In this document: positions 27,003 through 47,660 of the stretch, piece by piece
Layout of the letters: each line of letters opens with the position of its first letter
How positions within the stretch are numbered: the first letter of the stretch is position 1
From: Candidatus Omnitrophota bacterium
Lineage (GTDB): Bacteria > Omnitrophota > Gorgyraeia > 2-01-FULL-45-10
NCBI GenBank assembly: GCA_026387175.1
Contig: JAPLME010000007.1
Span: 64,487 to 128,486, forward strand
Reading direction: 5' to 3'
Length of the DNA: 64,000 bases
Translations under genes and position numbers: made by a program
The notes under the pieces: generated by a model
Database searches by the model: none
Told to the model about the DNA's origin: nothing
Seen by the model: the letters and a program-made list of their open reading frames with translations, nothing else

Positions 27003-28244
27003 CTATAGCGAGGGGTTGAAGTAGCCCATTCTGAGGTGGGGAAATTCTTTGCGTAGTGAGTCGATTACAGTTTTTATACCCAGTAGTTCTGAGCTCTTCG
27101 GCCATGCTTCAAGCTCTTCGAAATACCGCATCGGGTCATAATTGAGGTTGCGCCACTGGACCATATCTATCTTGTATCTGGAAGCCAGGTTTCCGAAGGC
27201 CATAAATTCATCTTTTGTATCGGTGAAACCCGGCATCGTTAAATAGTTAATAGAGACGAATGCTTTCTTCTCTTTCACTATTTTTATAGACTCCATTACG
27301 TCCTTAAGCTCGTACCCCCTCGGCCTGTAATATTTTGCGTAATAGGCTTCTCTCGCGCTATTTAAGCTGATCCGGACGCTATCGAGGCCTGCGTCCAATA
27401 ATCTGGCGAGCGCTTCGGGTCTCGAGCCATTGGAGTTCATATGTATGGTGCCGCCTTCAGTGTTTTTCCGGATGAGCATTATCGATTTCTCTATGAGCTT
27501 ATCCTGAAGAAGCGGCTCTCCCTCGCACCCTTGCCCGAAACTCACTATGGGCCGCTTTACGTTTTCGATATGAAACAATGCTATCTGGCTGACTTCTTCA
27601 GCTGTCGGAACAAATTTTATTCTCGGCTGCGATGCAGGACATTTTTTGTCCGGCTGGAATGATATACACCCTGTGCACGAGGCGTTACAGGATGGAGATG
27701 TTGGCAGTGGCGCTTCATATCTGCCTAAGAAAAAATTCTGCGCATTAGGGCACCCGTAAATGAGAGCGCAGGCCTTAAGATGCTCTATGAGCCTGTTTTT
27801 AGGGAAGAGCTTCGCTAATTTTACAATCCCCTTTCGTACAAGCGCCATATCTATATAGCGGCAATCATGCCGCCTGTCTTTGTCTATATGGATAGCAGCG
27901 GCATATAGTTCGTTTTTATACATACAAGCCGCGGCATATGCAAATAATGGGAGCTGTTTAGGATTGCCAATCGGGGTATAGGCGGCCGAGTAGGTTGCGG
28001 TATATCCGCTCGCCAGGAAAACCGCAACCGCAAACGCTCCTTCTATAACTATAAACCTGCCTGTTGCGGCATCGTAACCTATAGCGGACCTTGATGGCAG
28101 AATGAAGAGCCTGGACGCCGGGGGCAGTTTTATGAGATCGAGGCATTCTAACCTGAATATGAGTCCGCCTTTCATACCTGCCGCTTTCAGGTGTGTGTCA
28201 AAAGAGATATTCCCTTTTATGTCCGATACGAGCAGTCTAGGCAT
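27003..28244 (-). CDS. Radical SAM domain protein with an uncharacterised ~190-aa N-terminal domain
   Basis: CxxxCxxC motif CNASCTGC, followed by a glycine-rich SAM-binding region (SFGQGCEGEPLL). The N-terminal domain is not recognised. Confidence 0.55.
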   Translation of the reverse strand: MPRLLVSDIKGNISFDTHLKAAGMKGGLIFRLECLDLIKLPPASRLFILPSRSAIGYDAATGRFIVIEGAFAVAVFLASGYTATYSAAYTPIGNPKQLPLFAYAAACMYKNELYAAAIHIDKDRRHDCRYIDMALVRKGIVKLAKLFPKNRLIEHLKACALIYGCPNAQNFFLGRYEAPLPTSPSCNASCTGCISFQPDKKCPASQPRIKFVPTAEEVSQIALFHIENVKRPIVSFGQGCEGEPLLQDKLIEKSIMLIRKNTEGGTIHMNSNGSRPEALARLLDAGLDSVRISLNSAREAYYAKYYRPRGYELKDVMESIKIVKEKKAFVSINYLTMPGFTDTKDEFMAFGNLASRYKIDMVQWRNLNYDPMRYFEELEAWPKSSELLGIKTVIDSLRKEFPHLRMGYFNPSL

Positions 28245-28245
28245 A

Positions 28246-30018
28246 TCAGCTATAGAATTCCTTAATAATGTTCATCTTGCCGAGTGACTTGAGTGCCTCG
28301 ATAACATATCTTTTATTGCCGGGATTCTTGAATTGTATGAGCGCGCGCTGGAGCTTCTTCTCGCGAAGGTTTTTCGCCACATATACGTCCTGCCGGGTAA
28401 ATGGGTCTTTTCCGGTGTAGAACATTGCTCCTGATGCGGTCATCGGAAGCGGAATAAAATCCTGGATCTGTTCCGGATAGACATGCATCTTTTTTAATTC
28501 AAGCGAAAGATTCAGGGAATCTTCCAGTCTGGCTCCGGGATGCCCTACTATGATATAATTCACGAGAAATTGTTTCTTATTAAGTTTTTTGTTAACAGCA
28601 TCGAAGCGCTGGACGAAATGTTCATATACGCTAAAGCGCGGCTTTCGCATAAGGTCGAGCACATGCGCCTGGCCGTGCTCGGGCGCGACTTTCAACTGCC
28701 CGCTGACATGGTGAGCGCACAGCTCTCTCAGGTATTCGTCGGATTCGTTATCGTTCAGCAGATCATATCGGACGCCGCTCCCGACAAATATATGTTTGAC
28801 GCGCTCGATCGAGCCTGCGTGTTTCCAGAGTTCTATCATCTTAGAATAGCCGAGTTTAAGGTTCTTGCATTTTGCCGGGAAAAGGCATCTGCGGTCCTTG
28901 CAGGCGCCTTTATTTTTCCATAGATCGCAATGCGCCTCATAAAGATTTGCGGTCGCTCCTCCTATGTCGGTGATAGTGCCGTTAAAATCGGGCTGAGATG
29001 CCAGGGTTTTTATTTCTTTTAGTATGGATTCAGCGCTTCGGCTCTGGATGATCCTGCCCTGATGGGCGTAGAGAGAACAGAAGCTGCACTCTCCGGGGCA
29101 CCCCCTGTGCGATATGATCGAATATTTTACCGTTTCGAAACCCGGCACTCCGCCAGCCTTCTTATAACTGGGATGCGGCGATCTTGCGAACGGCAGTTTG
29201 TATATTCTGTCCATCTCTTTTGTGGATAACGGTTTCGCGCATGGGAGCTGGATCACGAAGCGAGCGGCATGGCGCTGTATTATCGTGCGGCCCCGCAGAG
29301 GATCCTGCTCCATATATGCGAGCCGGAAGGCTTCATTGAATTTATCTTTACTGTAGCTTGCCTCTTCAAATGAAGGTATCGATACGGCATCGTTAAAATT
29401 ATCTATCGAATTCCTGACGATGACCGTTCCGCGTATGTCGTTCAGATCTTTTATCCTTTCACCATCCCGCAGGCGTCTCGCTATTTCGGCTATCTGTACT
29501 TCGCCCATCCCGTATACAAGGATATCTGCCTTGGAATCAAGCAGTATCGACCTGCGGAGGGTATCCGACCAGTAGTCATAGTGAGCGAGCCTGCGCATGC
29601 TTGCCTCGATACCGCCGATGACGATCGGTATATTACCAAAAGCCTGGCGTATCTTGTTCGTGTATATAAGCGTTGCGCGGTCAGGACGCAGATCTGTCTT
29701 ACCTCCGGGCGAATACTCATCCTCGCTTCTAAATTTCTTGTTAGCGGTATAATTGGCGATCATCGAGTCCAGGTTGCCCGCAGTGACGCCAAAAAATAAT
29801 CGCGGCCGGCCCATCCTCTTTAGGGAGTCTGGGTTCTTCAGGTCGGGCTGGGCTATTATACCGACCTTATATCCTTCAGATTCAAGGACCCTTCCGATGA
29901 CGGCCCCTCCATAAGACGGGTGATCGACGTAGGCATCACCGGTCACTATTATTATGTCGAGATAGCTCCACCCTAGCGCGGACATCTCCTCTTTCGTCAT
30001 CGGTAAAAAATCACTCAT
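28246..30018 (-). CDS. YgiQ-family (UPF0313) radical SAM protein
   Basis: A YgiQ-type N-terminal domain (IIIVTGDAYVDHPSYGGAVIGRVLE..GYKVGIIAQPD) and a radical SAM Cys motif (HRGCPGECSFCS). Confidence 0.7.
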   Translation of the reverse strand: MSDFLPMTKEEMSALGWSYLDIIIVTGDAYVDHPSYGGAVIGRVLESEGYKVGIIAQPDLKNPDSLKRMGRPRLFFGVTAGNLDSMIANYTANKKFRSEDEYSPGGKTDLRPDRATLIYTNKIRQAFGNIPIVIGGIEASMRRLAHYDYWSDTLRRSILLDSKADILVYGMGEVQIAEIARRLRDGERIKDLNDIRGTVIVRNSIDNFNDAVSIPSFEEASYSKDKFNEAFRLAYMEQDPLRGRTIIQRHAARFVIQLPCAKPLSTKEMDRIYKLPFARSPHPSYKKAGGVPGFETVKYSIISHRGCPGECSFCSLYAHQGRIIQSRSAESILKEIKTLASQPDFNGTITDIGGATANLYEAHCDLWKNKGACKDRRCLFPAKCKNLKLGYSKMIELWKHAGSIERVKHIFVGSGVRYDLLNDNESDEYLRELCAHHVSGQLKVAPEHGQAHVLDLMRKPRFSVYEHFVQRFDAVNKKLNKKQFLVNYIIVGHPGARLEDSLNLSLELKKMHVYPEQIQDFIPLPMTASGAMFYTGKDPFTRQDVYVAKNLREKKLQRALIQFKNPGNKRYVIEALKSLGKMNIIKEFYS

Positions 30019-30661
30019 ATGTAATAGCCATTATTTTTTTATAGACTTCATTAAAGTCTTTGGTCTTACAGGTATAATCAGCTATTCTTTTCAGCTTAGC
30101 GCTTGAGCAGTTGAAGGCGATAAAGAAACCGGAATTTCTGGCAAGCGGTATATCGCCTTCGGTATCACCCACGCTTATTACCTCGTGCGGTTTCACCTTG
30201 AACTTTTTGTAAATTTCCGCCAGCGCCGTATGTTTCGCGCCGTGTTCGAGGTTTATCTTCACGCCGCCGGTCAGTAAACCGTTCCGTGAGGAGAGTAGGT
30301 TTGATATGGCATAATCGAATTTCAGCTCAGATCTTACCCGTTCCGTCATGAATTGCAGGCCGGTGGATACAGCGGCTAACTTGAATCCCTGTCTTTTTAA
30401 TTTAGTTATCGAGCGCGCAGCGTTCTTCGAGTAACGCACGCTTCTGAATATCGAGCGTATCTTTCTGATACGCATTCCCTTCCAATGGGCGGCGTCAAGT
30501 TCGCAGAATTTTCTGTAGGATATCTTACCGGCGAAGAAGTCTTCCTGATAACGGAACGCGCGATTTGACCAGAGGCGGAGTTTCTCATGGATATAGCGCC
30601 ACGAGCTGATGTGACGGGTTATGGTGCCGTCGATATCGAATATTATCAGCTTATACTTCAT
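30011..30661 (-). CDS. HAD-superfamily hydrolase, subfamily IB (phosphoserine-phosphatase-like)
   Basis: Motif I LIIFDIDGTIT and motif IV VISVGDTEGDIP. Confidence 0.7.
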   Translation of the reverse strand: MKYKLIIFDIDGTITRHISSWRYIHEKLRLWSNRAFRYQEDFFAGKISYRKFCELDAAHWKGMRIRKIRSIFRSVRYSKNAARSITKLKRQGFKLAAVSTGLQFMTERVRSELKFDYAISNLLSSRNGLLTGGVKINLEHGAKHTALAEIYKKFKVKPHEVISVGDTEGDIPLARNSGFFIAFNCSSAKLKRIADYTCKTKDFNEVYKKIMAITYE

Positions 30662-31099
30662 CTATAATATTTTTAGCAGGGAGAGCCCGGTCCCGGGGTC
30701 GATCTCTTTAGTCGCCCTTACCCCTTTTAGTTCAAATACCACCGCCTCTATAACCAGGAATACTTTGGATTTTTTGCGGACACATCCGGTGAGGGTCTTG
30801 AGCTTTTTGCCCATCGAGGCATGCAGATGTATTTGCGGGCCCTTTGAGTTAGTATATATGGTGCCGATACCCATAACCTCCCAGGCATCTTTAAATCCGA
30901 CCCAGTTAGGCTCAGGTGGTATAACGGGTTTTTTGGGCCCGGTCACGAGATCGCCTTTTTTCAGGGCGCCTATAAATACGAGCGTAGCGGCCCTTATCTT
31001 CTCTTTTCTGGCGAGCTTATCAAGCTCGTCTAACAGCACATCGTCGTCGTTGAATTTTATCAAAAATATTCTGCCTATGGAGCCTTTAGTATATTTCAT
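30662..31099 (-). CDS. PPC/DUF296 domain protein (predicted PD1-like DNA-binding fold)
   Basis: A 145-aa protein with the DUF296-like pattern (GRIFLIKFNDDDVLLDELDKLARKEKIRAATLVFIGAL). It overlaps the atpC stop by 4 nt. Confidence 0.5.
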   Translation of the reverse strand: MKYTKGSIGRIFLIKFNDDDVLLDELDKLARKEKIRAATLVFIGALKKGDLVTGPKKPVIPPEPNWVGFKDAWEVMGIGTIYTNSKGPQIHLHASMGKKLKTLTGCVRKKSKVFLVIEAVVFELKGVRATKEIDPGTGLSLLKIL

Positions 31100-31362
31100 G
31101 TCCTGTGCTCCTGGTCTAACAATATAGTAGCTCTATTCTTTATGATCTCGAGAAATCCGTTGGTCTTCGAGTCTAAAGCCGTTGTCTTTCCGGAGGCGTC
31201 TTTCAGAGTTATCTTTCCGGGGAGGAGAGTTGTCATCAGGGGGGCATGGTCGGCCAGTATTCCCAGATAGCCGATCTCTCCCGGAGCGACCAGCGACTGC
31301 AGGTCGCCCTCGAATATCTTTTTATCGCTCGATAGGATAGTCAGGTGAAATAACTTTGGCAC
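31096..31362 (-). CDS. atpC: F1 ATP synthase epsilon subunit, short form with the beta-sandwich domain only
   Basis: LTILSSDKKIFEGDLQSLVAPGEIGYLGILADHAPLMTTLLPGKITL is the epsilon N-terminal domain. At only 88 aa it lacks the C-terminal helical hairpin. Confidence 0.75.
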   Translation of the reverse strand: MPKLFHLTILSSDKKIFEGDLQSLVAPGEIGYLGILADHAPLMTTLLPGKITLKDASGKTTALDSKTNGFLEIIKNRATILLDQEHRT

Positions 31363-31367
31363 GATGA

Positions 31368-33633
<2,266 letters not shown>

Positions 33634-33637
<4 letters not shown>

Positions 33638-35151
33638 TTAATGGTATTCCTGAATCCGGTTTTGAATGATTCTATGGCTTTATTAAGTTTTTCCTTCAGC
33701 GGATCATCAAGAACCCTCTTCGCTTCGATCTCGCGCTCTATATCCGGATGAGTCGAATCGATATATTTATAGAATTCAATCTCAAATTTTCGGATCACAG
33801 ATATCTTCAAATCGTCCAGAAATCCATTTGTCGCGGCATAAATAATCATTACCTGTTTCCCCAGCCCGAGCGTATCGTATTGCCCCTGTTTCAATATCTC
33901 GACCATTCGCTCTCCGCGATGCAGCTGTGCCTGCGTGGTCTTATCGAGCTCCGACCCAAACTGGGAGAAAGCGATAAGCTCCCTGTACTGCGCCAGGTCC
34001 AGCCTCAACCTTCCGGCTACCTGCTTCATGGCCTTCTCCTGGGCGTTACCGCCTACCCGCGAGACCGATAAGCCCACATTGATCGCAGGGCGTACGCCTG
34101 CATAGAACAGGTCGGTTTCGAGATATATCTGGCCGTCGGTGATAGATATGACGTTCGTCGGTATGTAACTCGTTATGTCTCCCGCTTGCGTCTCTATTAT
34201 CGGAAGCGCGGTGATGGACCCTCCCCCGAGCTTGTCGCTCAGCTTTGCCGCGCGCTCCAGTAGCCTCGAATGCAGATAGAAGATATCTCCCGGGTATGCT
34301 TCCCTGCCCGGAGGCCTTCTCAATAGGAGCGAAAGCTGTCTGTAGGCCTGCGCGTGTTTTGAGAGATCGTCATATATGACCAGTACGTCTTTCCCTAAAT
34401 GCATGAACTCTTCCGCCATGGCGCAGGCTGAATAAGGGGCCAGATACTGCAGTGAGGCCGATGCGCGCGATGAAGCGCTTACGATAATCGTATGCTCCAT
34501 TGCGCCATACTGCTTAAGCGTCTCCGAGACGGATACTATGCTCGACATCTTCTGCCCGATAGCTACATAGATGCAGTAAACGCCTTTACCCTTCTGGTTG
34601 ATTATCGTATCGATCGCGATAGCTGTCTTGCCTGTCTGGCGGTCCGCGATTATGAGTTCACGTTGTCCGCGGCCTATGGGGATCATTGAATCGATAGCTT
34701 TTATGCCTGTATAGAGCGGCTGGGTGACAGGCTGCCGGTCTATGACGCCCGGCGACCTTGCCTCGACGGGCCGGTGTCTATTCGTGGCGATGGGTCCTTT
34801 GCCGTCTCTCGGATGTCCGAGTGCGCTAACGACCCTTCCTAAAAGGGCTTCTCCTACCGGCACCTGAGCGATCTTCCCCGTCCGCTTTACGATCTCGCCT
34901 TCCCGTATCTCTTTTTCATCTCCCAGTATGACTATGCCTACGCTATCCTCCTCCAGATTGAAGACTATCCCTTCGGTGCCGTCTTTAAACGTGACAAGCT
35001 CGCCCACCATGACATCATCTAACCCGTACACGAGGGCTATCCCGTCACCGACCTGCAGGACCGTTCCGACCGATTCGACCCTGAGCCTGGTTCGGTATTT
35101 CTCTAATTCTTTCTTAATTATGGCTGTTACTTCATGCGGCTGCAGATGCAT
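33634..35151 (-). CDS. atpA: F1 ATP synthase alpha subunit
   Basis: Walker [10 protein letters not shown] and the typical alpha C-terminus. Confidence 0.95.
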
Positions 35152-35152
35152 A

Positions 35153-36192: not shown

Positions 36193-36203
36193 TCAGTATT
36201 TCC

Positions 36204-36434
36204 TTAAATTTTCCCTGCCAGGCTAAAAGCGAAGACAAGCGCATAGATCGTTATGGCCTCAATGAACGCGCAGCCGGTAGCCATATTTATCAATATCTTC
36301 ATCGACGCTTCCGGTTGCCTGCCCGTCGCCTCCATCGCTGCCGCTACCGCCCTGCCCAGCGCTATAGCCGAGCCGAAAGCGGCTATCCCCAGACCTATGG
36401 GAAGGCCGAACGATAACATCGTCTTATAATCCAT
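36204..36434 (-). CDS. atpE: Fo ATP synthase c subunit (proteolipid)
   Basis: A 76-aa helical hairpin with the RQP loop motif and a conserved carboxylate in helix 2 (AFIEAITIY). GGAGG RBS 6-10 nt upstream. Confidence 0.9.
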   Translation of the reverse strand: MDYKTMLSFGLPIGLGIAAFGSAIALGRAVAAAMEATGRQPEASMKILINMATGCAFIEAITIYALVFAFSLAGKI

Positions 36435-36447
36435 CTCCTACCTCCTT

Positions 36448-39635: not shown

Positions 39636-40858
39636 CTTATAGCCTCTTGAGCGAATTTCTTGTTAAGTTTCGAGAAGTCGATACCGTTCGAACGGTGCCA
39701 TTCTATGCCGTGTAAACGCAGCTCTTCCCACTTTACGATGTGGGGTGACCTCTTATTAAGATCTTTGACAGTGATAAGCCTGTCAGTGCATGAAAAGCAC
39801 GGGTCTATCGCCGCGATCACTATAGGAAGATCCGCAAGCTGCCTGTCCTCAAGCATCTTCGCTACCGTCTGAATGTTCGCCAGGGTCGGAGCCCTCACTT
39901 TTACTCTTTCGGGCTTATCGGTGCCATTGGCCTTCACATAGTGGACGTCCTCGCCTCTGGGGGCCTCGTAACGGCTGAAGGCTTCTCCGGCGGGTATCTT
40001 GCGCGGAGACTTTATCGCTATAGGGCCGTCCGGTATATTTTTTAAGGCCGTGCGGATCAGGCGATATGACTCCATCAGCTCACCCATCCTAACGAGCGTC
40101 CGGCCGTATACGTCATTATGGTCATCCGTAACGATCTTGAAATCCAGTTCTGCGTAAGCCGCATAAGGGTCGTCGCGTCTCGTGTCTCTGGCTACATTTG
40201 AAGCTCGCGCGGTAGGCCCGACAGCTCCGAGAGATAACGCGTCCTCGCGCGAGAGCATTCCTACTCCCGACAGCCTCTGAATTAAAGTGGTCTCTTCTTT
40301 TGCTACCTGGATGTAATACTTTGTTCTCTCTTCCAGAATATCCATGGCCTTTAAGATGTGTTCTATGTGCTCGGGGCTAAGATCGCGCTTTACGCCCCCT
40401 ATCACATTCATGCCGTAATTGACGCGATTACCGGTCAGTTCCGCAAGGATGTCCATTACCACTTCGCGGTCGCGCCATGTATACATCAGGAGAGTATCAA
40501 ATCCTACCTCATGGCCGGCGACGCCGAGCCACAAGAGATGGCTGTGTATTCTCTCCAATTCGCCTATTATCGAGCGGATGTAAAGGGCCCTGCGCGGAGT
40601 CTCCAGTCCGGCTATCTCTTCGACGGCCTGGGCGAAGCATGTAGCGTGTGTGTGCGAGCATATACCGCATATACGTTCGATAAGATAGATATCCTGTAGG
40701 TACGTTCTGGCTTCACACGCTTTCTCTATGCCGCGATGATTATATCCGAGCCGGGCGCTGAACGCCATTATCCTCTCGCCCGCCAAAGTGACGCTGAAGC
40801 TCTCGGGCTCTTTCAGCGCCGGATGCTGGGGGCCTATCGGTATTACGACTTTACGCAT
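39626..40858 (-). CDS. Group 4 [NiFe] hydrogenase large (catalytic) subunit (NuoD-like)
   Basis: N-terminal Ni-Fe ligand motif RICGICSHTH and C-terminal DPCFSCTDR, so all four Cys are present. A ~50-aa extension after the C-terminal motif is consistent with protease processing. Confidence 0.85.
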   Translation of the reverse strand: MRKVVIPIGPQHPALKEPESFSVTLAGERIMAFSARLGYNHRGIEKACEARTYLQDIYLIERICGICSHTHATCFAQAVEEIAGLETPRRALYIRSIIGELERIHSHLLWLGVAGHEVGFDTLLMYTWRDREVVMDILAELTGNRVNYGMNVIGGVKRDLSPEHIEHILKAMDILEERTKYYIQVAKEETTLIQRLSGVGMLSREDALSLGAVGPTARASNVARDTRRDDPYAAYAELDFKIVTDDHNDVYGRTLVRMGELMESYRLIRTALKNIPDGPIAIKSPRKIPAGEAFSRYEAPRGEDVHYVKANGTDKPERVKVRAPTLANIQTVAKMLEDRQLADLPIVIAAIDPCFSCTDRLITVKDLNKRSPHIVKWEELRLHGIEWHRSNGIDFSKLNKKFAQEAIRCY

Positions 40859-41349
40859 TATATTTTTTCCTCCTCATCTGGTAACGCACCGGATGCGGCG
40901 GTGCCTTTTGGCTTCCAGTCTTTCCTCAGCGGGTGCTCATCTTTAGGCCAATCATCCGGAAGCGGATAGCGATTGCCTTTTGTGAGCCCTTCTACCTCGG
41001 CTCCTAAAAGGTCCATGACCTCTCTTTCGTAAATATCGGAATTCGGAAAATATTTAAAGACGGACTTGATCACGGGTTTATCTTTCGGCACAGAGAATTT
41101 CAGGCTGAAAGTTATCCCGTCAGTGCGGGCCATATGATATATGAAGCCAAGCGCCTGGCCTTCATCGAGGCCGGTTATCGTGCACAGGATAGAGAATTTG
41201 AGATCCTCTTTGGCATACACAAAGACTTCCTCGAAACCCTCCGCAGGGGTCTCGGCGACGACCCTCCTCACCCGCTGCACCTTAGCCTTATCCTTGAGAA
41301 ACGGAAATTTCTTTAGGAGCTCCTGAACTATATTTTCTTCTTTAGTCAT
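40858..41349 (-). CDS. NuoC-like (30-kDa) subunit of the group-4 hydrogenase
   Basis: A 163-aa protein in the position between the small and large subunits, with the NuoC/MbhK-like pattern. Confidence 0.7.
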   Translation of the reverse strand: MTKEENIVQELLKKFPFLKDKAKVQRVRRVVAETPAEGFEEVFVYAKEDLKFSILCTITGLDEGQALGFIYHMARTDGITFSLKFSVPKDKPVIKSVFKYFPNSDIYEREVMDLLGAEVEGLTKGNRYPLPDDWPKDEHPLRKDWKPKGTAASGALPDEEEKI

Positions 41350-41354
41350 AAATT

Positions 41355-41792
41355 TTACTTTTTCTCTTCCAGGCTGGCCAATAACTTTACAACGCCGTCT
41401 ATTATCGCCTTAGGGCTGGCCGGGCATCCGGGTATGTATGCGGATACCGGAATGACCTGGTCTATTCCCGATTCTACGCAATAGCATCCGTCGAAGACTC
41501 CGCCTGAGCAGGAACAGCTTCCCACTGCCACTACAAATTTCGGCTCAGCCATCTGGTCATATATCCTTTTAAGTCTGTCTTTTGTCTGTTTCGTTACGGG
41601 GCCGGAGCAGACCAGCACATCGGCGTGTTTCGGAGCGCCTTTCAACTGCACCCCGAAACGTTCTACATCGTAACGCGGCGTAAGGGCGGCGACTATCTCG
41701 ATATCACAGGCGTTACAGGCCCCCGTATTAAAATGGATTATCCACGGCGACTTAATCCTCGACCAGGTTACTATTTTCTTGATCAGCTCCAT
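41355..41792 (-). CDS. Group 4 [NiFe] hydrogenase small subunit (NuoB-like, proximal 4Fe-4S)
   Basis: Cys ligands in GACNAC, GSCSCSGG and GCP. Confidence 0.8.
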   Translation of the reverse strand: MELIKKIVTWSRIKSPWIIHFNTGACNACDIEIVAALTPRYDVERFGVQLKGAPKHADVLVCSGPVTKQTKDRLKRIYDQMAEPKFVVAVGSCSCSGGVFDGCYCVESGIDQVIPVSAYIPGCPASPKAIIDGVVKLLASLEEKK

Positions 41793-41793
41793 A

Positions 41794-42129
41794 TTATCTC
41801 CTGAGCAGTATCGTAAGTCCCGCCGTCGCCCCCGCCAGATATATTACCGCGATGGCAAAGGAGTTCGTCGTCTCGATAGGTATAGTCGCTATGGTCAACG
41901 CCACCACGTGCAGTACCGTGAAAAGAAACGCAAACGGAAAAAATTGGCTATAATCGGGCTGCATCAAATGGGTCTTAACGTCTTCTCCGCAGGCATACGA
42001 TGTCCCTATATCTTCCGGAGGGTTTTTCGATTTTAGCGAAAGCCTGGATAGGACTCCGGAGAAGATAGTGGTCATTAAAAGCACCGTAACGAAACATATC
42101 GGAGGAGTCAATAATAGCTTATTCATCAT
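41794..42129 (-). CDS. NuoA-like small membrane subunit
   Basis: A 111-aa 3-TM protein with a YACGED motif resembling the NuoA PYECG loop. Confidence 0.55.
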   Translation of the reverse strand: MMNKLLLTPPICFVTVLLMTTIFSGVLSRLSLKSKNPPEDIGTSYACGEDVKTHLMQPDYSQFFPFAFLFTVLHVVALTIATIPIETTNSFAIAVIYLAGATAGLTILLRR

Positions 42130-42450
42130 TTATCCCTTCAGCCTCTTTAATTCCCTTACGTCGAGCGAGTCATTGGATCTGAATACCCGCAGAGCTATGC
42201 CGCTGGCTATCGCGGCGACCACAACCTCTATCACTATTATAGTTATCACCATGGCCTGAGTTACAGCCGTGCGCCCTGTTATGTAGCCGGCCACTATCAC
42301 CAGCAGTGTCACCGCTTTTATCAATAGCTCGAGCCCTATTATGGTCCGTATCAGGTTGCGCGTCACGAGTATGCAATAGAGCCCGCAGACGAAAGTCAGT
42401 ACGATGAAAAAGCCGAACATTAAGAAAACATGCCAGGACTCACCACTCAT
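42130..42450 (-). CDS. NuoK/MrpC-like small membrane subunit
   Basis: A ~107-aa 3-TM protein with conserved charged residues within the helices (IIGLELLIKAV...VIEVVVAAIASGIAL). Confidence 0.65.
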   Translation of the reverse strand: MSGESWHVFLMFGFFIVLTFVCGLYCILVTRNLIRTIIGLELLIKAVTLLVIVAGYITGRTAVTQAMVITIIVIEVVVAAIASGIALRVFRSNDSLDVRELKRLKG

Positions 42451-42955
42451 CTCTTCTTCTCTCCTCAAATAGTATTACCACCCCGAGCGCGCCTATGATG
42501 ACCACGATTATCTGCCCGATCATATCCAACTGTCGCATATTCCACATTACGTATCTCACGTCTTTCAGCGCGCCTTCCGTCACGGGCGGCACGGTGATAT
42601 TGCTCTTTATCTTTATCAGAGTGAGAACTATACTCGTTATGATCATCAATATGGGAAGGTATCCGAACCTCTTATTCCTCTCCTTGGAAGATTCCACTAT
42701 CTCCTTATTCGTTAGCGGTTTCGTCAGGCTTATTGTGCTGACGAATACGACCGTTATCAGGCCCGTGCAGACGGAGAGCTCAAACACAGCGGCCAGCGGC
42801 GAATTCAGCCTGAACATGAGTATAGTTATAACAGCACTCGTAACTGCAAGCCCTATAGCGGCCTTCAATAAGCTTCTGCCCATCACCGTCCATAGTGCGG
42901 CCACGATCATTATCACAAGAAGGCCTGAGTCTATAGATATATAAGAAGTCATCAT
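42440..42955 (-). CDS. MrpB-like membrane subunit
   Basis: 171-aa polytopic membrane protein in an Mrp-like gene context. Confidence 0.5.
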   Translation of the reverse strand: MMTSYISIDSGLLVIMIVAALWTVMGRSLLKAAIGLAVTSAVITILMFRLNSPLAAVFELSVCTGLITVVFVSTISLTKPLTNKEIVESSKERNKRFGYLPILMIITSIVLTLIKIKSNITVPPVTEGALKDVRYVMWNMRQLDMIGQIIVVIIGALGVVILFEERRRDEW

Positions 42956-44382
42956 TTCGTTATCAACTCCTGTAGGGGTGCGATGAAGGTATTAAAGACA
43001 AACGGAAAAAAGATGCCTGAGGCGACTAGTATCGCCGCGAGTATAATCGACGCCGTTGCTATGCCGGGCCTGGCCTCTTTCAGATGCTCGTTTTCCTTCG
43101 CCAATTTACCGAAAAAGGCCCTCCTCTGCATAACCAATAGGTATGCCAGTGTAATAACGCCCGCCATTATCGCTATCACTGAATAGGCATGGCTGCCGGA
43201 CTGCCAGAGAGCTATGATTATCATCAGCTTTGACCAGAATCCGGATAGAGGCGGTATGCCTGCCGCCGATAATAGCCCTATGACCGAAGTCGCGCCGGTT
43301 ATAGGCATCTTTGAAGATAACCCTCCCATCTTATCCATGTCTGTCGTTCCGAGCCTTGTCTCAACGGCAGCGGAATTCACGAAAAGAAGAGATTTGAATA
43401 TCGAGTGATTAAACAGGTGAAATATCGCTCCCGCTATTCCCAGGAACGTCCCCGTGCCGAAACCTACCACTATATAACCCACCTGGCTTATGCTGGAATA
43501 AGCCAGCATTCTCTTCATATCGTTTTGCCCCATAGCGGCAAAAGCTCCGACAAGTATGGATAAAGTGCCTATTAGTAGTAGCGTAGATTTCAGGGCAGGG
43601 CTAAAGCCTAATATGGCCGTCAGGACCCTTATCAATGTGTATATGCCTGCCACCTTGGTCACGATACCCCCAAGAAGCACCGAGACTGCCGCGGGCGCGG
43701 AACTGTAAGAATCCGGAACCCACGCATGGAACGGCACGAGCCCTCCTTTTATCAGAAGGCCGCATATCAGCAATCCGATCGTAACGAGCACGATATTATT
43801 GTTCGGCAGGAGCAGAGCTTCCCGGATCGCCGCAAACGATGTGCTGCCGGAGATCATAAAAAGAAGAGCTATCGAAGTAAGTATCATTATCGTAGCGACT
43901 GCGGAGAGGATCAGGTATTTGAAAGCGCCTTCAAGAGCATATATATCTTTTTCGAACGCTATAAGCACGAAGGTAGATATCGCGGTCACCTCAAGAAATA
44001 CATATAACGAGAAAATATCCCTGACTATCACTATCCCGCTCATTCCGATAGACGCTATTATGAGCAGATTTATGAATTTAAAACGCTCTTTCTCGTCATG
44101 TATGGTGTTGCGCGCGACCAGGAGCGTGGATATCGAAACTATTCCTATACATAAGAGCATTATGAAACTTAATTGATCCAAAGAGTAATCCGCTTTGAAG
44201 AATGAGTCGATATGGCTAAACTCATTGCGCCAGAATATGGGATGGTGGCTTATCGCAAGAAGTATCTGCGAGACGAACAGGATAAGCGCGAACCAGAACG
44301 CAAATTTCCTCATTATGTCTTTAAGAGGAAGATTGAGAATCACTATCCCTATAAGCGGCATCAGAATAAGTAGTGACGGCAT
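42952..44382 (-). CDS. Antiporter-like subunit (MrpD/NuoN family)
   Basis: 476-aa 14-TM-type protein with NuoL/M/N family conserved segments (GGLVPFHAWVPDSYSSAP, FLEVTAISTF). Confidence 0.75.
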   Translation of the reverse strand: MPSLLILMPLIGIVILNLPLKDIMRKFAFWFALILFVSQILLAISHHPIFWRNEFSHIDSFFKADYSLDQLSFIMLLCIGIVSISTLLVARNTIHDEKERFKFINLLIIASIGMSGIVIVRDIFSLYVFLEVTAISTFVLIAFEKDIYALEGAFKYLILSAVATIMILTSIALLFMISGSTSFAAIREALLLPNNNIVLVTIGLLICGLLIKGGLVPFHAWVPDSYSSAPAAVSVLLGGIVTKVAGIYTLIRVLTAILGFSPALKSTLLLIGTLSILVGAFAAMGQNDMKRMLAYSSISQVGYIVVGFGTGTFLGIAGAIFHLFNHSIFKSLLFVNSAAVETRLGTTDMDKMGGLSSKMPITGATSVIGLLSAAGIPPLSGFWSKLMIIIALWQSGSHAYSVIAIMAGVITLAYLLVMQRRAFFGKLAKENEHLKEARPGIATASIILAAILVASGIFFPFVFNTFIAPLQELITK

Positions 44383-44398
44383 TATTATTTCTCGCTCT

Positions 44399-46222
44399 TT
44401 ACTTTAATAAAAATAAGACTATGATCGCGGTGGTCGCGATCGACCATATTATATACGTCTTGTAGCTTCCGTCGTGCAGATTTCGTATCGCGCCCGTTAT
44501 CGCCCCGGTCGCCGCAGGAGTGAAGACGTTATAGACCCAGTCCACCGCCCTGTCGCAGGTCCTGCAGCAGGCGGCGAAGATACCGGCCGATCCCATCCCT
44601 ATATTATAGGGATCGAGCCTGCCTTTTTCGGCGTACTCATAAATAGTCCGAAGCCCCGGAGCGTAATGGATATGGTCCGCGGCTTTCAGGGAGCTTCCCG
44701 TGCGCTTTACGCCGTATAGATGATTCAATAAAGCGGCTATCAGGGTTATCACCGTAATCATCACCAGTGTGGAGTTTGCCGGCCACCCCGCAAAATTGTG
44801 GCCCTCAAGCCTTGCGCCCAATATGGGCTGAATCAATTTATTAATAGGCAGAGCATTCCATACGCCGAATAGAACGCATGAAGCCGCTATCACTACCATG
44901 GGGATGAGCATTGGAAGAGGCGCTTCTTTTACGTCATTCCTGTTCGATTTGCCCATGAATGCTGCATGCCCGAGCTTCAAAAAAGACGCCGCGGTAAGGA
45001 ACGATCCAAGCGCTGCGGCAACGTAGAATATCATCCCTCTTTCAAGGGCGCCGTCATAGATCAGTTCTTTAGAGAAGAACCCGTTGAACGGCGGCACTCC
45101 GGATATCGAAGCCGCTGTTATCAGGAAGCAGATGAACGTCACCGGCATCATCTTCCCCAACCCGCCCAGCTGTTCTAGATCGGTTGTACCGGCCTGCCTC
45201 TCGACTGAACCTCCGGTAAGAAACAGACAGCTCTTATACAACGCGTTATTTATCATGTGAAATAGCCCGCCCACTATACCTATGGGCACAAGAGTGCCTA
45301 TGCCGAGTATCATATAACCGACCTGGCTTACGGCGTGGTAAGCTAATAATCTCTTATAATCTTTCTGCACCAGCGCCATCATTACAGCTCCCAATATGGT
45401 GATCGCGCCCACGGTCATCATCGCAAAGCTGGCCCACGAATCAGGCGTAAGCCTGAAGATGTCCAGGGATATCCTTGTCAAAAAGTATATGCCCAATAAT
45501 TTCTCGAGCGCTCCGGGGAATATCGCCATGAATGGCAGCGGCGCATCGATCGCGGCATCCGGTATCCATGTATGAAACGGCATCGATCCTGCCTTAGCTA
45601 TCGCTCCCGTCACCATCAGTATGAATGCCAGCCCCCCGAACCCGCTTGCAGCAATGCTTATCTTCGAGATAGTGAGCGTGCCCGCGATGTGGCCGCATAT
45701 CGCTATCCCAGCCATCATGCAAAGGTCGCTTATTCCTATGATAATAAACATTTTAGTCGCAGTCCTGAAAGCGTCTTTATTGCCGATGGCTATCATTCCC
45801 CACAGAGTGATGAGAAGCCCCTCCCAGAAGAATAGCAGCATGATGAGATTATCTGAGAGCGCCGCTCCGTTAACGAGAGCCAATGACATCAATAGAAGTC
45901 CGAAAAAGAGGCTCGAATTGATCCTTTCGCGCATGAAGACAATGGAATACAGGATTACAAGAAATCCAAATCCCGCCGATGCCAGTATGGTAAATGCGCT
46001 GAAGTGGTAGAGCCTAAACGAGAATTCAAAGCCGAAACCCGCCCAGGGCATCGAAAATGCAGCATTGCTTTTAAAGAGTGAGAACGCTATAAAAAGATTG
46101 GCTGCGGCCCCCGCAAGCGTTAACAGGTCCCTGGTCAATCTCATTTTACGCTGGAAAAGGATTATCGCCAGCCCGGCCAGCGCCGGCATTATTATTAAGG
46201 ATAGGGATAGTTTTTCTATCAT
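44399..46222 (-). CDS. Antiporter-like subunit (MrpA/NuoL family, long form)
   Basis: 607 aa, with the conserved GSMPFHTWIPDA segment and a C-terminal extension typical of NuoL/MrpA. Confidence 0.75.
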   Translation of the reverse strand: MIEKLSLSLIIMPALAGLAIILFQRKMRLTRDLLTLAGAAANLFIAFSLFKSNAAFSMPWAGFGFEFSFRLYHFSAFTILASAGFGFLVILYSIVFMRERINSSLFFGLLLMSLALVNGAALSDNLIMLLFFWEGLLITLWGMIAIGNKDAFRTATKMFIIIGISDLCMMAGIAICGHIAGTLTISKISIAASGFGGLAFILMVTGAIAKAGSMPFHTWIPDAAIDAPLPFMAIFPGALEKLLGIYFLTRISLDIFRLTPDSWASFAMMTVGAITILGAVMMALVQKDYKRLLAYHAVSQVGYMILGIGTLVPIGIVGGLFHMINNALYKSCLFLTGGSVERQAGTTDLEQLGGLGKMMPVTFICFLITAASISGVPPFNGFFSKELIYDGALERGMIFYVAAALGSFLTAASFLKLGHAAFMGKSNRNDVKEAPLPMLIPMVVIAASCVLFGVWNALPINKLIQPILGARLEGHNFAGWPANSTLVMITVITLIAALLNHLYGVKRTGSSLKAADHIHYAPGLRTIYEYAEKGRLDPYNIGMGSAGIFAACCRTCDRAVDWVYNVFTPAATGAITGAIRNLHDGSYKTYIIWSIATTAIIVLFLLK

Positions 46223-46223
46223 A

Positions 46224-47660
46224 TTATATGCCTAACATCTGTTTGATCGTTGTTTGTACGAATGAGGCCGGATATTGAATATATATACCGCCCAGCAGTG
46301 AGAGTATTCCAAGGACTGCGACGCTGGCCACCATTATATAGGAACCTTCCCTCGCGGCCGGGGTATTCTCATCACCCATGAATACCATATTGAATAGCCT
46401 GAACAGATAGAGTATTGTCATAAAGGCCCCAACCAGAAACGTAAGAGCTATCCATACATTATCGTTGAATGCGCCCGACATGACCATATACTTCGAGAAG
46501 AACCCGCCGAATGGCGGCGTGCCCATTACTGAAAAAGCGCAGAACAGAAATGAGATCGCGGTTAAAGGCATCGCGCTGAAAAGCCCGCCCATCTTTGTTA
46601 TGTCCTTAGTGTGTGTGCCGTGTTCGATTATACCCGCGGAGAGGAAGAGCCCCGCCTTCGCTATGCCGTGCATTAATATATATAAGAGAGCGCCGGCTAA
46701 CCCTATTCCGCCCCCTAATGTGAGGCCGAGGAATATAAATGCTATCTGGCTCACGGTCGAATACGCTATTATTCGCTTCATGTCCGTTTCGACCAGCGCG
46801 GCGCCCGCGGAAACAAGGGCGCTCATTGCCGCTATGACCGGTACTATGGTGTGCCATATAGTCGAGATCGTGAATGTCGCGATGAATAACCTGGCAAACA
46901 CATAGACGCCGATCTTTACGAGGACCGCCGCATGTAGAAGCGCCGTTACTGGCGATGGCGCGACGCCGGCGTCAGGCAGCCATGTGTGGAACGGCAGAGT
47001 TGCCGATTTTGCCAGGATTCCGAATAATATCAGGAGCACTACTATGTCGGGAACGGCCTTCGGGCCCAGCGAGCTCTTTATAACGGCAAGATCGAATGAG
47101 CCTGTTTCGGCGTACAATAAGATGAAGCCCATAAGCATCAGCAGGGCTCCGAATACCGTTACGAGGAATGCCTTATCCGCCTTTATCACGTATGATCTTT
47201 CCCTGAAAAAGCCTATCAAGCGCCAGCTGGTCAGCGCGGTTATCTCCCAGAAGATATATAGTAATATCAGATTTGCGGAAAATACGAGGCCCATCATCGA
47301 ACCTATGAAAAGCACGACCATAGTATAGTATTCGGTGCGATTCGGGTAATGGCTTATATAGCCGAATGAATAGATGACTATGATGAAGCTTATAAGCGAT
47401 GAAACTATCGCCATGAATACTGCTAGAGCGTCCGCTGTGAGGACGAAGTTGAAACCGAGCGGAAACGCGCAAGAGACGGTGACTGTAGTCCCGGACAATA
47501 CGGTCGGCACCAAGAGCGCCGAAGCCACCAGCGATGCCAGGACAAAGATCGCCGCCGCCCCATTCCTGGCGTGCTCGGAAACCTTTCCGATGATCGGTAG
47601 CAGGCATGCCCCTATTACCGGCACGAAGACCGCAGTTAATAACAGGCTGTTATTTGTCAT
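46224..47660 (-). CDS. Antiporter-like subunit (MrpD/NuoM family); first gene of the array
   Basis: 478 aa, with LPFHTWLPDAGVAPSPVTALLHAAVLVKIGVY characteristic of the family. Confidence 0.75.
   Translation of the reverse strand: MTNNSLLLTAVFVPVIGACLLPIIGKVSEHARNGAAAIFVLASLVASALLVPTVLSGTTVTVSCAFPLGFNFVLTADALAVFMAIVSSLISFIIVIYSFGYISHYPNRTEYYTMVVLFIGSMMGLVFSANLILLYIFWEITALTSWRLIGFFRERSYVIKADKAFLVTVFGALLMLMGFILLYAETGSFDLAVIKSSLGPKAVPDIVVLLILFGILAKSATLPFHTWLPDAGVAPSPVTALLHAAVLVKIGVYVFARLFIATFTISTIWHTIVPVIAAMSALVSAGAALVETDMKRIIAYSTVSQIAFIFLGLTLGGGIGLAGALLYILMHGIAKAGLFLSAGIIEHGTHTKDITKMGGLFSAMPLTAISFLFCAFSVMGTPPFGGFFSKYMVMSGAFNDNVWIALTFLVGAFMTILYLFRLFNMVFMGDENTPAAREGSYIMVASVAVLGILSLLGGIYIQYPASFVQTTIKQMLGI

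Follow-up and report, generated by a model that had tools for sequence, protein, structure and literature searches.

Where the genes for a hydrogenase lie directly ahead of those for an ATP synthase, do the two form a single ion-gradient-driven unit, or do they merely share a neighbourhood? We addressed this question for a locus in a 64,000-nt stretch of an Omnitrophota contig (hereafter the window), in which the minus strand of positions 27003-47660 carries a 12-gene group-4 [NiFe] hydrogenase cassette, followed by a complete F1Fo atp operon and four further genes.

Array extent and setting

Gene families across the array were assigned with Pfam and NCBIfam profiles, and every gene of the original prediction was recovered where it had been placed, on the minus strand, as are all features given below. 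The widest intergenic gap, between atpB and atpE, is 87 nt, and 15 of the 20 co-directional gaps within the array are no longer than 10 nt, compared with 13 of 27 elsewhere in the window. The tight co-directional layout first singled out at this locus is therefore observed but is nothing special, since ∼52 of the 57 genes in the window lie on the minus strand and close spacing is the norm of this genome. Coding density in the window is 94%, and the minus-strand run continues upstream of the array through gltD, gltB and glutamine synthetase III (GS-III).

Hydrogenase cassette

The cassette opens with three antiporter-like subunits. hL1 (46224-47660, 478 aa) is of the NuoL/MrpA N-terminal type, matching Proton_antipo_M (7e-70) and Proton_antipo_N, with NuoL as its top NCBIfam match (324 bits). 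hL2 (44399-46222, 607 aa; Pfam Proton_antipo_M) is NuoL-like over its full length, C-terminal extension included: the NCBIfam NuoL model covered 6-609 of 615, and residues 54-606 align with 68-624 of the NuoL chain 8e9g_L, although the top PDB match is MbhH (166 bits). The third, hN (42952-44382, 476 aa), matches Pfam Proton_antipo_M and NCBIfam profiles as a NuoN/MrpD type. Three smaller membrane subunits follow. hJ (42440-42955, 171 aa) is a NuoJ or MbhD(+E)-like protein, scoring 27.9 bits against Pfam MbhD (cut-off 27.2) and 29.9 bits, under the cut-off, against Oxidored_q3. hK (42130-42468), a NuoK/MrpC-like subunit (Oxidored_q2, 2e-19), has 112 aa from a TTG start, or 96 aa from the ATG at 42420 that the gene caller favours on an independent contig (L164). 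hA (41794-42129, 111 aa) is probably NuoA-like, as judged from PF00507, which it matches below threshold (E=0.0014), and its position is kept in all 80 loci compared.

The catalytic part comprises the NuoB-type small subunit hB (41355-41792; Oxidored_q6, 8e-31), the NuoC-like hC (40858-41349; Complex1_30kDa, 9e-23) and the [NiFe] large subunit hD (39626-40858, 410 aa), identified by Pfam and its ligand motifs and ending in a 50-aa C-terminal extension. With RICGICSHTH (L1) and DPCFSCTDR (L2), hD has all four Ni-Fe cysteines, as had been claimed; these are invariant among 22 homologues, and the protein is 100% identical to an NCBI entry from an Omnitrophica MAG. Next come the NuoH-like membrane subunit hH (38694-39635; NADHdh, 3e-73) and the 2x[4Fe-4S] NuoI-like hI (38320-38727; Pfam and NCBIfam; 125 aa from an alternative start at 38697), the probable entry point for ferredoxin. 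The last gene encodes a HycI-type maturation endopeptidase (37854-38351, 165 aa, GTG start; Pfam HycI, 5e-16) that scores 101 bits against TIGR00142 and 87 bits, above the cut-off, against TIGR00072.

These sequence features mark the enzyme as a true [NiFe] hydrogenase. Assignment to the Mbx/Mbs/Ehr-type non-hydrogenases was rejected because hD carries both cysteine motifs (L1 and L2) and a C-terminal extension and because the cassette encodes HycI. The hydrogenase probably belongs to subgroup 4g, the literature name of a heterogeneous group. The description of the cassette as Mrp-linked holds only in part: antiporter-like subunits are present, but Pfam and NCBIfam profiles detected no MrpE, MrpF or MrpG (MbhA-C) homologues in the cassette, and the layout is that of an 11-subunit complex-I/Hfo-like enzyme. 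Nor does the cassette contain an alternative input module, be it NuoEFG, formate dehydrogenase or CO dehydrogenase. The order of its genes does not vary among 80 species of more than 10 phyla, across which large-subunit identity is 63-86%.

ATP synthase operon

The predicted complete F1Fo operon was borne out by clear family matches for atpB (36522-37295; a subunit, with the conserved Arg in LSLRLRSN), atpE (36204-36434; c subunit, 76 aa, E59), atpF (35698-36192; b), atpH (35153-35701; delta), atpA (33634-35151; alpha), atpG (32777-33637; gamma), atpD (31368-32774; beta) and atpC (31096-31362; epsilon, 88 aa). The two genes ahead of these matched below threshold: an atpZ-like small membrane protein (37624-37854, 76 aa; PF09527, E=0.06), which is conserved as the opening gene of relatives' atp operons, and an atpI-like protein (37277-37624, 115 aa; PF03899, E=5.5e-4, 20.8 bits against a cut-off of 25.1). 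Residue comparison with the I. tartaricus c subunit shows that atpE lacks the Na+ ligand set, and the ATP synthase is probably H+-coupled. Together with the absence of MrpEFG homologues from the cassette, this makes H+ coupling plausible for the hydrogenase as well.

The epsilon subunit consists of the N-terminal beta-sandwich only, with the C-terminal helical domain absent (TIGR01216 covered 2-80 of 130). In well-studied F-ATPases, the epsilon C-terminal domain inhibits ATP hydrolysis, and the truncation would fit an enzyme able to work unhindered as an ATPase too. Short epsilon subunits are, however, also known from ordinary ATP-synthesising bacteria.

Junction and flanking sequence elements

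At the boundary between the two modules, the HycI stop codon TAA (37856-37854) and the atpZ ATG (37854-37852) have one A in common, giving the TAATG at 37854 that had been noted. Consensus scans of the coding strand found neither terminator-like nor promoter-like sites in 37854-38351, the interval in which such a pair would have separated the modules. Because the source is a metagenome-assembled genome, it also had to be checked whether fragments of different organisms had been joined here by assembly or binning. No support was found for this, and we treat the contig as non-chimeric: a separately built Logan contig (L164; run SRR25046533, 14,232 bp) matches window positions 36522-50753 at 99.98% and crosses the junction, numerous further assemblies, made from different samples, show this junction too, and base composition is even across it.

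The overlap had also been taken to show transcriptional fusion. The overlap is real but is weak evidence for fusion, as atpZ in relatives lies equally tight against other upstream genes (H+-PPase, a permease, pyruvate kinase, an aminotransferase-like gene and GS-III). This is the main reservation: tight junctions are normal in these compact genomes, and in relatives atp comes equally close to unrelated genes. Co-transcription of hydrogenase and atp is therefore no more than likely.

The 115-nt gap between gltD and hL1 holds a promoter-like site (47737-47765), TTGAAA-17 nt-TATCTT with a TG before the -10 box, which is a consensus match only. Closer to the array, 27 nt 5′ of hL1, a hairpin AAGCCCGC...GCAGGGCTT followed by a seven-U run (47688-47726) marks the 5′ boundary of the array and could serve as terminator of gltBD or as an attenuator in the leader. 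It has no Rfam match; of the relatives, L007 has a similar hairpin and T-run immediately 5′ of hL1, while L002 has there a T-run that shares the 3′ motif GTAGGCTTC. Within the array, a tandem 52-nt repeat (36435-36550) ends at the Shine-Dalgarno sequence of atpE. Each unit joins a perfect inverted repeat of 9 bp, GCCGATATC-N3-GATATCGGC, to a TACAAT/TACAGT box on its 3′ side, and the window has four copies of the element where none is expected, the tandem being found also 5′ of GS-III. It is absent in the relatives examined, and contig L164 terminates inside its first copy, at 36522. This tandem may act upstream of atpE as an internal promoter/operator, an RNA element or a processing site.

Genes downstream of atp

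The four distal genes had been listed as accessory genes of unknown function. Profiles instead assign them to families: a PCC-domain protein (30662-31099), a HAD-IB phosphoserine-phosphatase-like hydrolase (30011-30661), a YgiQ radical SAM protein (28246-30018, 835 bits) and a second radical SAM protein (27003-28244). They stay in place downstream both in relatives that lack atp (L002, L007) and in relatives that lack the hydrogenase (L087, L112), and are therefore accessories of neither module.

Layout in relatives

Thirteen diverged Omnitrophota contigs (L001, L003, L004, L081, L082, L084, L093, L103, L115, L118, L122, L140 and L155) retain the junction, with a spacing of -38 to +43 nt; nine of the 13 have the two genes overlapping or at most 3 nt apart (-11 to +3). 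In a tree of AtpA and AtpD, the loci that bear it form one clade with the same downstream genes, and it persists although AtpB identity within the clade drops to ∼60%. Conservation of the fusion is limited to this extent: close relatives carry a single module between the same flanks (hydrogenase only in L002 and L007, atp only in L087 and L112), so that the pairing is dispensable and the reading of the array as one fixed unit falls, and the cassette is never followed by atp in ∼41 informative loci from other phyla. The ATP synthase thus adjoins the cassette mostly in Omnitrophota, where 5 of 14 informative species have atp directly 3′ of the cassette; among 37 informative metagenome loci of the window's atp lineage, 10 have the hydrogenase ahead of atpB. 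By a rough estimate, two given loci would adjoin in a 1-3 Mb genome with a chance of well under 1%, and the adjacency is commoner than chance gives.

Other linkages are apparently separate in origin from the main clade. A divergent atp operon has its atpB overlapping hycI (L029), a HypC-radical-SAM gene sits between hydrogenase and atp (L051, L158), ExbBD, H+-PPase and a permease lie between them (L088, L098), or the atp operon is on the upstream side of the cassette (L113, L006). H+-PPase adjoins one or the other module in many loci.

What the adjacency may mean

We favour, with a probability of roughly 0.55, the explanation that two known membrane machines, an H2-evolving, H+-pumping hydrogenase and an F1Fo ATP synthase, lie back to back as a variant of an ion-gradient island. 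Electrons of reduced ferredoxin from fermentation would enter at the 2x[4Fe-4S] subunit and travel by way of the small subunit to the NiFe site, converting protons there to H2; the three antiporter-like subunits would export protons, and the ATP synthase, likely made from the same read-through transcript, would draw on the proton gradient. Such islands would recur in Omnitrophota as clusters of hydrogenase, H+-pyrophosphatase, ExbBD, permease and atp in changing order, with the hydrogenase-atp pair as a compact variant. The junction itself would have been born in the ancestor of one family-level clade, with later loss of either module possible. Counting against this explanation are the one-module relatives, the cassettes of other phyla that no atp follows, the ordinary tightness of junctions in the genome, the possible internal promoter ahead of atpE and the shortened epsilon subunit.

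The same genes could be run in reverse, with F1Fo hydrolysing substrate-level ATP to build a gradient on which the hydrogenase drives uphill reduction of ferredoxin with H2, possibly feeding a (partial) Wood-Ljungdahl pathway. Such reverse coupling, too, would benefit from co-expression. We think this unlikely, though it deserves real weight. The epsilon subunit without its C-terminal domain would suit it, but short forms occur in ordinary ATP-synthesising bacteria as well, and gene order would be alike for either direction. Among solved structures, hD is nearest to the H2-evolving MbhL and HycE, and Wood-Ljungdahl genes are absent within the window, both of which speak for the forward direction. 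On the other side, just such a reverse mode has been put forward for Hfo, an archaeal 4g hydrogenase of 11 subunits (PMC7886697), and reduction of ferredoxin with H2 has been suggested for 4g enzymes (supplement of PMC10066038). Moreover, family CAIMPC01, which takes its name from the genome of the closest relative, L001, is listed among the putative acetogens with a partial Wood-Ljungdahl pathway (PMC10066038).

The adjacency could also be functionally meaningless, a mobile 12-gene cassette having landed in a permissive spot beside atp and genome streamlining having tightened the junction. The gene order, invariant at 63-86% large-subunit identity, hints that the cassette is transferred whole, hydrogenase-only and atp-only versions show the locus to be modular, atp sits tight against any upstream gene, and the window is densely coding and almost entirely on one strand. 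Even so, we consider this quite improbable: linkage is far above chance in both sets of informative loci, it occurs in at least four different arrangements, including the divergent and upstream ones, the other recurrent neighbours, H+-PPase and ExbBD, are ion-gradient machines too, and the junction has been retained through the divergence of AtpB.

Comparison with known systems

The literature open to search yielded no description of this arrangement, in line with the original prediction that it is not a described operon type. We see it as a new arrangement of known parts and not a new system, compatible with a very simple energy metabolism in an uncultured Omnitrophota bacterium. The large subunit scores highest against P. 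furiosus MbhL (6CFW_L, 335 bits), ahead of HycE (278) and Nqo4 (224). Compared with the P. furiosus-type Mbh-Mrp, however, the cassette has three antiporter-like subunits and lacks the MrpEFG-type sodium module. Its 11 subunit types are those of a minimal complex I, to which it adds its own HycI protease, and it shares with archaeal Hfo the 11-subunit layout of three antiporter-like subunits and a NuoJ/K/A/H-like membrane arm.

Gene content of the array

A six-frame listing of open reading frames combined with profile searches recovered every gene named in the original prediction, at the predicted positions and all on the minus strand. The 12-gene group-4 [NiFe] hydrogenase cassette opens with three antiporter-like proteins that match the Proton_antipo_M profile, hL1 (46224–47660), hL2 (44399–46222) and hN (42952–44382), and continues with a weakly assigned NuoJ/MbhD-like membrane subunit, hJ (42440–42955), and the NuoK-like membrane subunit hK (42130–42468), which has a profile match. 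It then encodes a small membrane protein, hA (41794–42129), whose match to NuoA fell below threshold, followed by profile-matched NuoB-type small (hB, 41355–41792), NuoC-like (hC, 40858–41349), large (hD, 39626–40858, also identified by its NiFe motifs), NuoH-like (hH, 38694–39635) and 2x[4Fe-4S] (hI, 38320–38727) subunits and the maturation endopeptidase HycI (37854–38351). The ATP synthase operon begins with atpZ (37624–37854) and atpI (37277–37624), which were assigned by position together with weak profile matches (E = 0.06 and 5.5e-4), and runs through atpB, E, F, H, A, G, D and C, all with profile matches, to 31096. The widest gap in the array, between atpB and atpE, is 87 nt.

Beyond atpC lie four distal genes, ending at 27003, which had been described as of unknown function; their families can be named as a PCC-domain protein, a HAD-IB hydrolase, a YgiQ radical SAM protein (835 bits) and a second radical SAM protein. 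They are part of neither the hydrogenase nor the atp module. The distal radical SAM gene (27003–28244) was considered as kin of a HypC–radical SAM fusion present at two related loci, but the two were unrelated in comparison, and a role of the distal genes in hydrogenase maturation was rejected for that reason. A 525-nt stretch free of open reading frames (26478–27002) separates the convergent ends of the array and of a plus-strand DEAD/DSHCT helicase gene (24600–26477); an Rfam search of this stretch gave no match, and a clear terminator was not seen in it.

Identity of the hydrogenase

The large subunit carries both NiFe ligand motifs: RICGICSHTH near the N-terminus (L1, pattern C[GS][ILV]C[AGNS]xxH) and DPCFSCTDR near the C-terminus (L2, pattern [DE][PL]Cx[AGST]Cx[DE][RL]). 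Their cysteines, C64 and C67 in L1 and C354 and C357 in L2, are unchanged across 22 homologues. Fifty residues follow DPCFSCTDR, a HycI-type endopeptidase gene lies in the same cassette, and C-terminal cleavage is predicted. Pfam searches found the group-4 gene set complete in the cluster, with NuoB-type, NuoC-, NuoH- and NuoI-like subunits alongside the antiporter-like ones. Judged by these sequence features, the window enzyme is a genuine [NiFe] hydrogenase. The objection that the original prediction had raised against itself, a large subunit falling in a non-hydrogenase Mbx/Mbs-like clade, does not hold at the level of motifs, given the ligand motifs, the invariant cysteines and HycI.

An NCBI 'Candidatus Omnitrophica' MAG encodes a protein 100% identical to the large subunit, and more than 100 cluster representatives are 74–95% identical to this subunit, the source-named ones all labelled Omnitrophota. 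The best NCBIfam matches of the large subunit, NuoD and FpoD, were both below cut-off. It also scores 239 bits on PF00346 (Complex1_49kDa), and many of its homologues have been named 'NADH-quinone oxidoreductase subunit D' by JGI. Counts of 'respiratory complex I' based on PF00346, as in PMC10066038, may include the window-type hydrogenase in some Omnitrophota. In PMC8542988 and PMC10066038, the HydDB class of membrane-bound NiFe enzymes of Omnitrophota is 4g.

The label 'Mrp-linked' proved imprecise, since profile searches of all 12 cassette genes found no MrpE/F/G (MbhA-C, F)-type module. The cassette instead encodes three antiporter-like subunits of the L/M/N type (Proton_antipo_M) and one homologue each of NuoA, B, C, D, H, I, J and K, with the NuoA and NuoJ assignments weak, so that each of its subunits has a single counterpart among the 11 of minimal complex I. 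Because hL2 aligns over the full length of NuoL (6–609 of the 615 positions of the NCBIfam model, and 68–624 with mycobacterial NuoL), it includes the C-terminal extension.

The ATP synthase

The canonical F1Fo set (a, c, b, delta, alpha, gamma, beta and epsilon) is complete in one cluster. In the a subunit, LSLRLRSN with its essential Arg is invariant, and the carboxylate of the c subunit is E59. In a hand alignment to the I. tartaricus sequence, Leu26, Glu59, Ala60 and Ile61 of the window c subunit fall at the sites of Gln32, Glu65, Ser66 and Thr67, the Na+ ligand set of that species; with moderate confidence, this set is not reproduced in the window protein. The epsilon subunit (31096–31362) has 88 aa, comprising the N-terminal beta-sandwich without the C-terminal helical domain, and it is short in relatives too, where about 80–84 residues align.

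The junction between the two modules

The predicted overlap of hycI and atpZ is real: the stop codon TAA (37856–37854) gives its last base to the ATG of atpZ, an overlap of 1 nt. A contig assembled separately from run SRR25046533 (L164; 14,232 bp) matches the window from 36522 to 50753 at 99.98% and covers gltB, gltD, the whole cassette with hycI, atpZ, atpI and atpB. Because this contig spans the junction and the junction is kept in relatives, a chimeric origin, which the original prediction had named as a way in which it could fail, is excluded.

Between 37854 and 38351 we found no consensus promoter or terminator site on the coding strand, though the consensus may not be that of this phylum and a promoter inside hycI is possible. 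The promoter and terminator scans covered 26000–57500 and were compared with shuffled controls; site counts were not above the controls in the part that holds the junction (26000–45900) and were modestly above them in 45900–57500.

The original prediction read the overlap as an apparent transcriptional fusion of the two modules. The overlap stands, but tight junctions are general in this genome and atpZ is tight to whatever gene precedes it. About 94% of the window is coding, about 52 of its 57 genes are on the minus strand, and of the co-directional gaps, 15 of 20 within the array and 13 of 27 beyond it measure at most 10 nt. Relatives that lack the hydrogenase show equally close spacing between atpZ and its upstream neighbour, be it an H+-PPase (4 nt), a permease (overlap), a pyruvate kinase (23 nt) or glutamine synthetase III (GS-III; overlap). 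For these reasons, read-through co-transcription of the hydrogenase and atp genes is likely, yet it is not specific to the hycI–atpZ pair.

Distribution of the cassette and its linkage to atp genes

A survey with one genome per species yielded 80 hydrogenase loci with a large-subunit identity of 63–86%. They span Omnitrophota, Planctomycetota, Elusimicrobiota, Margulisiibacteriota, Verrucomicrobiota, Spirochaetota, Bacillota, Myxococcota, Fibrobacterota and others, and wherever the contig is long enough the 12-gene order from hL1 to hycI is identical. The window-type hydrogenase is thus very widespread, with a frozen gene order, and the combination of identical order and this range of identity in more than 10 phyla suggests that the cassette has been transferred horizontally as one piece; it is a frozen, probably horizontally mobile module. 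Some loci carry unexpected phylum labels (Patescibacteria, L039; Actinomycetota, L028 and L033), and a number of these are possibly mis-binned contigs. At L033, a second partial peripheral-arm set, hB-hC-hD-hH-hI, directly follows hycI, which suggests a tandem second group-4 enzyme or a related complex.

Linkage to the atp operon is narrower in range. The operon lies 3′ of hycI in 5 of the 14 informative Omnitrophota species (L001, L003, L004, L029 and L051) and in none of the ∼41 informative loci from other phyla; at L006 atpG-D-C lie 5′ of hL1, and at L046 the atp genes are convergent and ∼6 kb away. A second, atp-centred survey gathered 80 metagenome loci through AtpB alignment, and among the 37 that were informative, in which the contig reaches 1.5 kb or more 5′ of atpB, 10 had the hydrogenase upstream of atpB. 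In 13 loci (L001, L003, L004, L081, L082, L084, L093, L103, L115, L118, L122, L140 and L155) the hycI stop and the following atp gene are −38 to +43 nt apart; in nine of them the value lies between −11 and +3, and −4 is the most common. In a neighbour-joining tree of AtpA+AtpD these loci form one clade, and they have the same PCC-HAD-YgiQ genes downstream. Since a single clade shares its downstream genes, a single origin of the fusion, in the common ancestor of these loci, is most likely on the evidence of this tree. Conservation among relatives, which the original prediction had left to comparative genomics, is partial: the fusion is kept in one Omnitrophota clade, while other relatives have the hydrogenase only or the atp operon only.

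Three states of the locus occur between like flanks. The window and others have gltBD-hyd-atp-PCC; L002 and L007 have gltBD-hyd-PCC, where the hycI stop abuts the PCC start; and L087 has gltBD-...-atp-PCC, with L112 likewise lacking the hydrogenase. From these states it follows that either module can be cleanly lost from the locus.

Other arrangements of ion-gradient genes

The two modules also meet in other ways. At L029, hycI is joined directly to atpB of a divergent atp operon that lacks atpZ and atpI and whose AtpB is 27% identical. In two Omnitrophota relatives, L051 (9717–11018) and L158 (8326–9621), a single protein of 431–433 aa sits between hycI and atpZ and consists of a HypC/HupF domain fused to a HydE-like radical SAM domain with a BATS domain (NCBIfam HydE, 251.7 bits against a cut-off of 254.6). 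HypC/HupF is a [NiFe] maturation chaperone and HydE an [FeFe]-type radical SAM maturase, and their fusion beside a NiFe hydrogenase is unusual. We found no description of such a fusion in the open-access literature, and it could bear on anaerobic diatomic-ligand synthesis.

Membrane H+-pyrophosphatases (H+-PPases) recur beside hydrogenase cassettes and atp operons, in many cases accompanied by ExbB/ExbD and an amino-acid permease. The order hycI-ExbB-ExbD-H+-PPase-permease-atpZ is found at L088 (3976–9316) and L098 (3912–9217), and atp-ExbB-ExbD-H+-PPase-hL1 at L113 (16373–19692). An H+-PPase lies directly 5′ of hL1 in the two closest genome relatives, L001 (870–3077) and L003 (890–3094), and directly 5′ of the atp operon, alone or with the permease, at L087, L112, L121, L127, L129 and L138; it also occurs at L012, L021 and others, and within 10 kb of the cassette in loci of Planctomycetota, Spirochaetota, Endomicrobia and Bacillota. 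A homologue search of the whole window found no H+-PPase, ExbBD or HypC. This recurrence near hydrogenase or atp genes suggests an 'ion-gradient island', and with makers and users of ion gradients clustering repeatedly, the window arrangement would be its most compact variant.

Possible leader and repeat elements

The 115-nt gap between gltD and hL1 contains a promoter-like site followed by a hairpin and a run of seven U (47688–47726), so that the 5′ boundary of the array is better marked than the hydrogenase–atp junction. A hairpin and U-run lie 0–27 nt 5′ of the first hydrogenase gene across the window, L007 and L002. In L007 the hairpin and T-run before hL1 (∼3120–3155) are comparable to those of the window, while in L002 a T-run and a GTAGGCTTC motif (∼3180–3205) are common with the window and a clear 5′ arm was not found. 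The gltD–hL1 spacers are long in these relatives (235 nt in L002, 605 nt in L007), and Rfam gave no match in the whole window or in the 605-nt leader of L007. The hairpin and U-run could be a leader or attenuator for the hydrogenase genes.

Tandem units of ∼52 nt stand directly 5′ of the ribosome-binding sites of atpE (36435–36550) and GS-III (56030–56130), both on the minus strand; the true start of GS-III is likely ∼56012. Every unit consists of a perfect 9-bp inverted repeat, GCCGATATC-N3-GATATCGGC, followed by a TACAAT-like box, ACTTAGCCTACAATA.GGCTGAATAAAC. Four such palindromes occur in the window against none expected, with a symmetric (compensatory) change in one copy. The separately assembled contig ends at 36522, inside the first repeat copy, as expected of a multi-copy repeat. 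The tandem could be a regulated internal promoter/operator or an RNA element or leader. The element is absent from the relatives compared and specific to the window's genome, and for that reason it says nothing general about atp regulation. The window also holds an ANTAR-GAF regulator gene at 60038–60835.

A proposed two-enzyme chemiosmotic circuit and its alternatives

We infer reduced ferredoxin to be the likely electron donor because the cassette lacks an NADH, formate or CO module, and electrons would enter through the 2x[4Fe-4S] subunit, as in MBH. The missing Mrp sodium module and the c-subunit residues together suggest that both machines use H+ as their coupling ion. In the best-supported reading of these sequences, H2-evolving, proton-pumping respiration would feed the ATP synthase. 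The main rival runs the same circuit backwards, with ATP hydrolysis driving H2-dependent ferredoxin reduction; such a mode has been proposed for the archaeal hydrogenase Hfo (PMC7886697), and it also fits an epsilon subunit without the C-terminal inhibitory domain and the predicted acetogenic lifestyle of the closest family, CAIMPC01. Gene order alone cannot separate the forward and reverse modes. That the adjacency is purely neutral is less likely, as linkage is frequent and comes in several separate arrangements.

In a bolder reading, the hydrogenase and atp genes would be a selected, co-transcribed two-enzyme respiratory operon, possibly with a local proton circuit or supercomplex, and the most compact form of an unrecognised Omnitrophota ion-gradient island that has been kept together through repeated rearrangement. 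We offer it tentatively, with a probability of roughly 0.3.

For 'simple respiration' from ferredoxin to protons there is biochemical proof in Thermococcales archaea; in many uncultured anaerobic bacteria its presence is no more than inferred. Omnitrophota are a widespread phylum of very small cells, and conserved coupling of the hydrogenase and atp genes gives independent genomic support for a two-enzyme chemiosmotic circuit, or its reverse, operating as a unit in this phylum. The hydrogenase and atp genes together also form a compact 22-gene candidate for heterologous reconstitution.

Both enzymes are of known kinds, and the finding is a gene-arrangement variant of known machines with no new mechanism; in the open-access literature, neither the operon arrangement nor the wider ion-gradient island seems to have been described. 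The accessible parts of PMC8542988, PMC10066038, bioRxiv 10.1101/765248 and PMC6349859 treat the Omnitrophota 4g hydrogenase and ATPase as separate inventory items and do not mention their adjacency or overlap. No description of the arrangement was found in the open-access literature, which is not proof of novelty, and the term 'ATP synthase' is absent from the main text of a 2025 NiFe hydrogenase neighbourhood analysis.

Comparison with known systems

The 'Mbh-Mrp type' or 4g hydrogenases listed for Omnitrophota, Elusimicrobia, Saganbacteria and Cloacimonadota MAGs in those four sources are very probably the same enzyme family as the window's. The window large subunit is 74–100% identical to proteins from Omnitrophota MAGs and has homologues at 63–76% identity in Elusimicrobiota and Margulisiibacteriota MAGs.

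Of the solved structures, MbhL of P. furiosus MBH (group 4d, PDB 6CFW; 335 bits) matches the large subunit best, followed by HycE (278) and Thermus Nqo4 (224). The presumed chemistry is alike, reduced ferredoxin to H2 with ion export and ATP synthesis. MBH contains a single antiporter-like subunit (MbhH) and an MrpEFG-like sodium module, whereas the window cassette has three and no sodium module, which rules out a P. furiosus-type Mbh-Mrp (4d) identity. MBH genes are not known to be neighbours of archaeal A1Ao ATP synthase genes. The bacterial cassette encodes an 11-subunit complex-I-type enzyme and not a copy of Mbh-Mrp, and as such it bears on the evolution of complex I.

With E. coli formate hydrogenlyase-2 (Hyf) and complex I, the window enzyme shares multiple antiporter-like subunits, a long NuoL-type subunit and homologous peripheral-arm subunits. 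Unlike them, its cassette has no formate dehydrogenase or NADH module, and it retains the NiFe ligands that complex I has lost. Neither Hyf nor complex I genes are fused to atp genes.

The closest described architecture, as judged from subunit composition, is Hfo of Bathyarchaeia, which has been called the first 11-subunit Fpo-like [NiFe] hydrogenase and placed in subgroup 4g-6 of a heterogeneous 4g (PMC7886697, Loh et al. 2021). The two enzymes have the same 11 complex-I subunit types (A, B, C, D, H, I, J, K, L, M and N), keep the L1 and L2 NiFe motifs, and lack both the MbhABCF sodium module and the NuoEFG/FpoF input module; ferredoxin is the presumed partner of each. Hfo is archaeal and the window enzyme bacterial. 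The Hfo genes follow the nuo/fpo order (A-B-C-D-H-I-J-K-L-M-N), whereas those of the window run L-L'-N-J-K-A-B-C-D-H-I-hycI, and, unlike Hfo, the window-type cassette in Omnitrophota adjoins an F-type atp operon.
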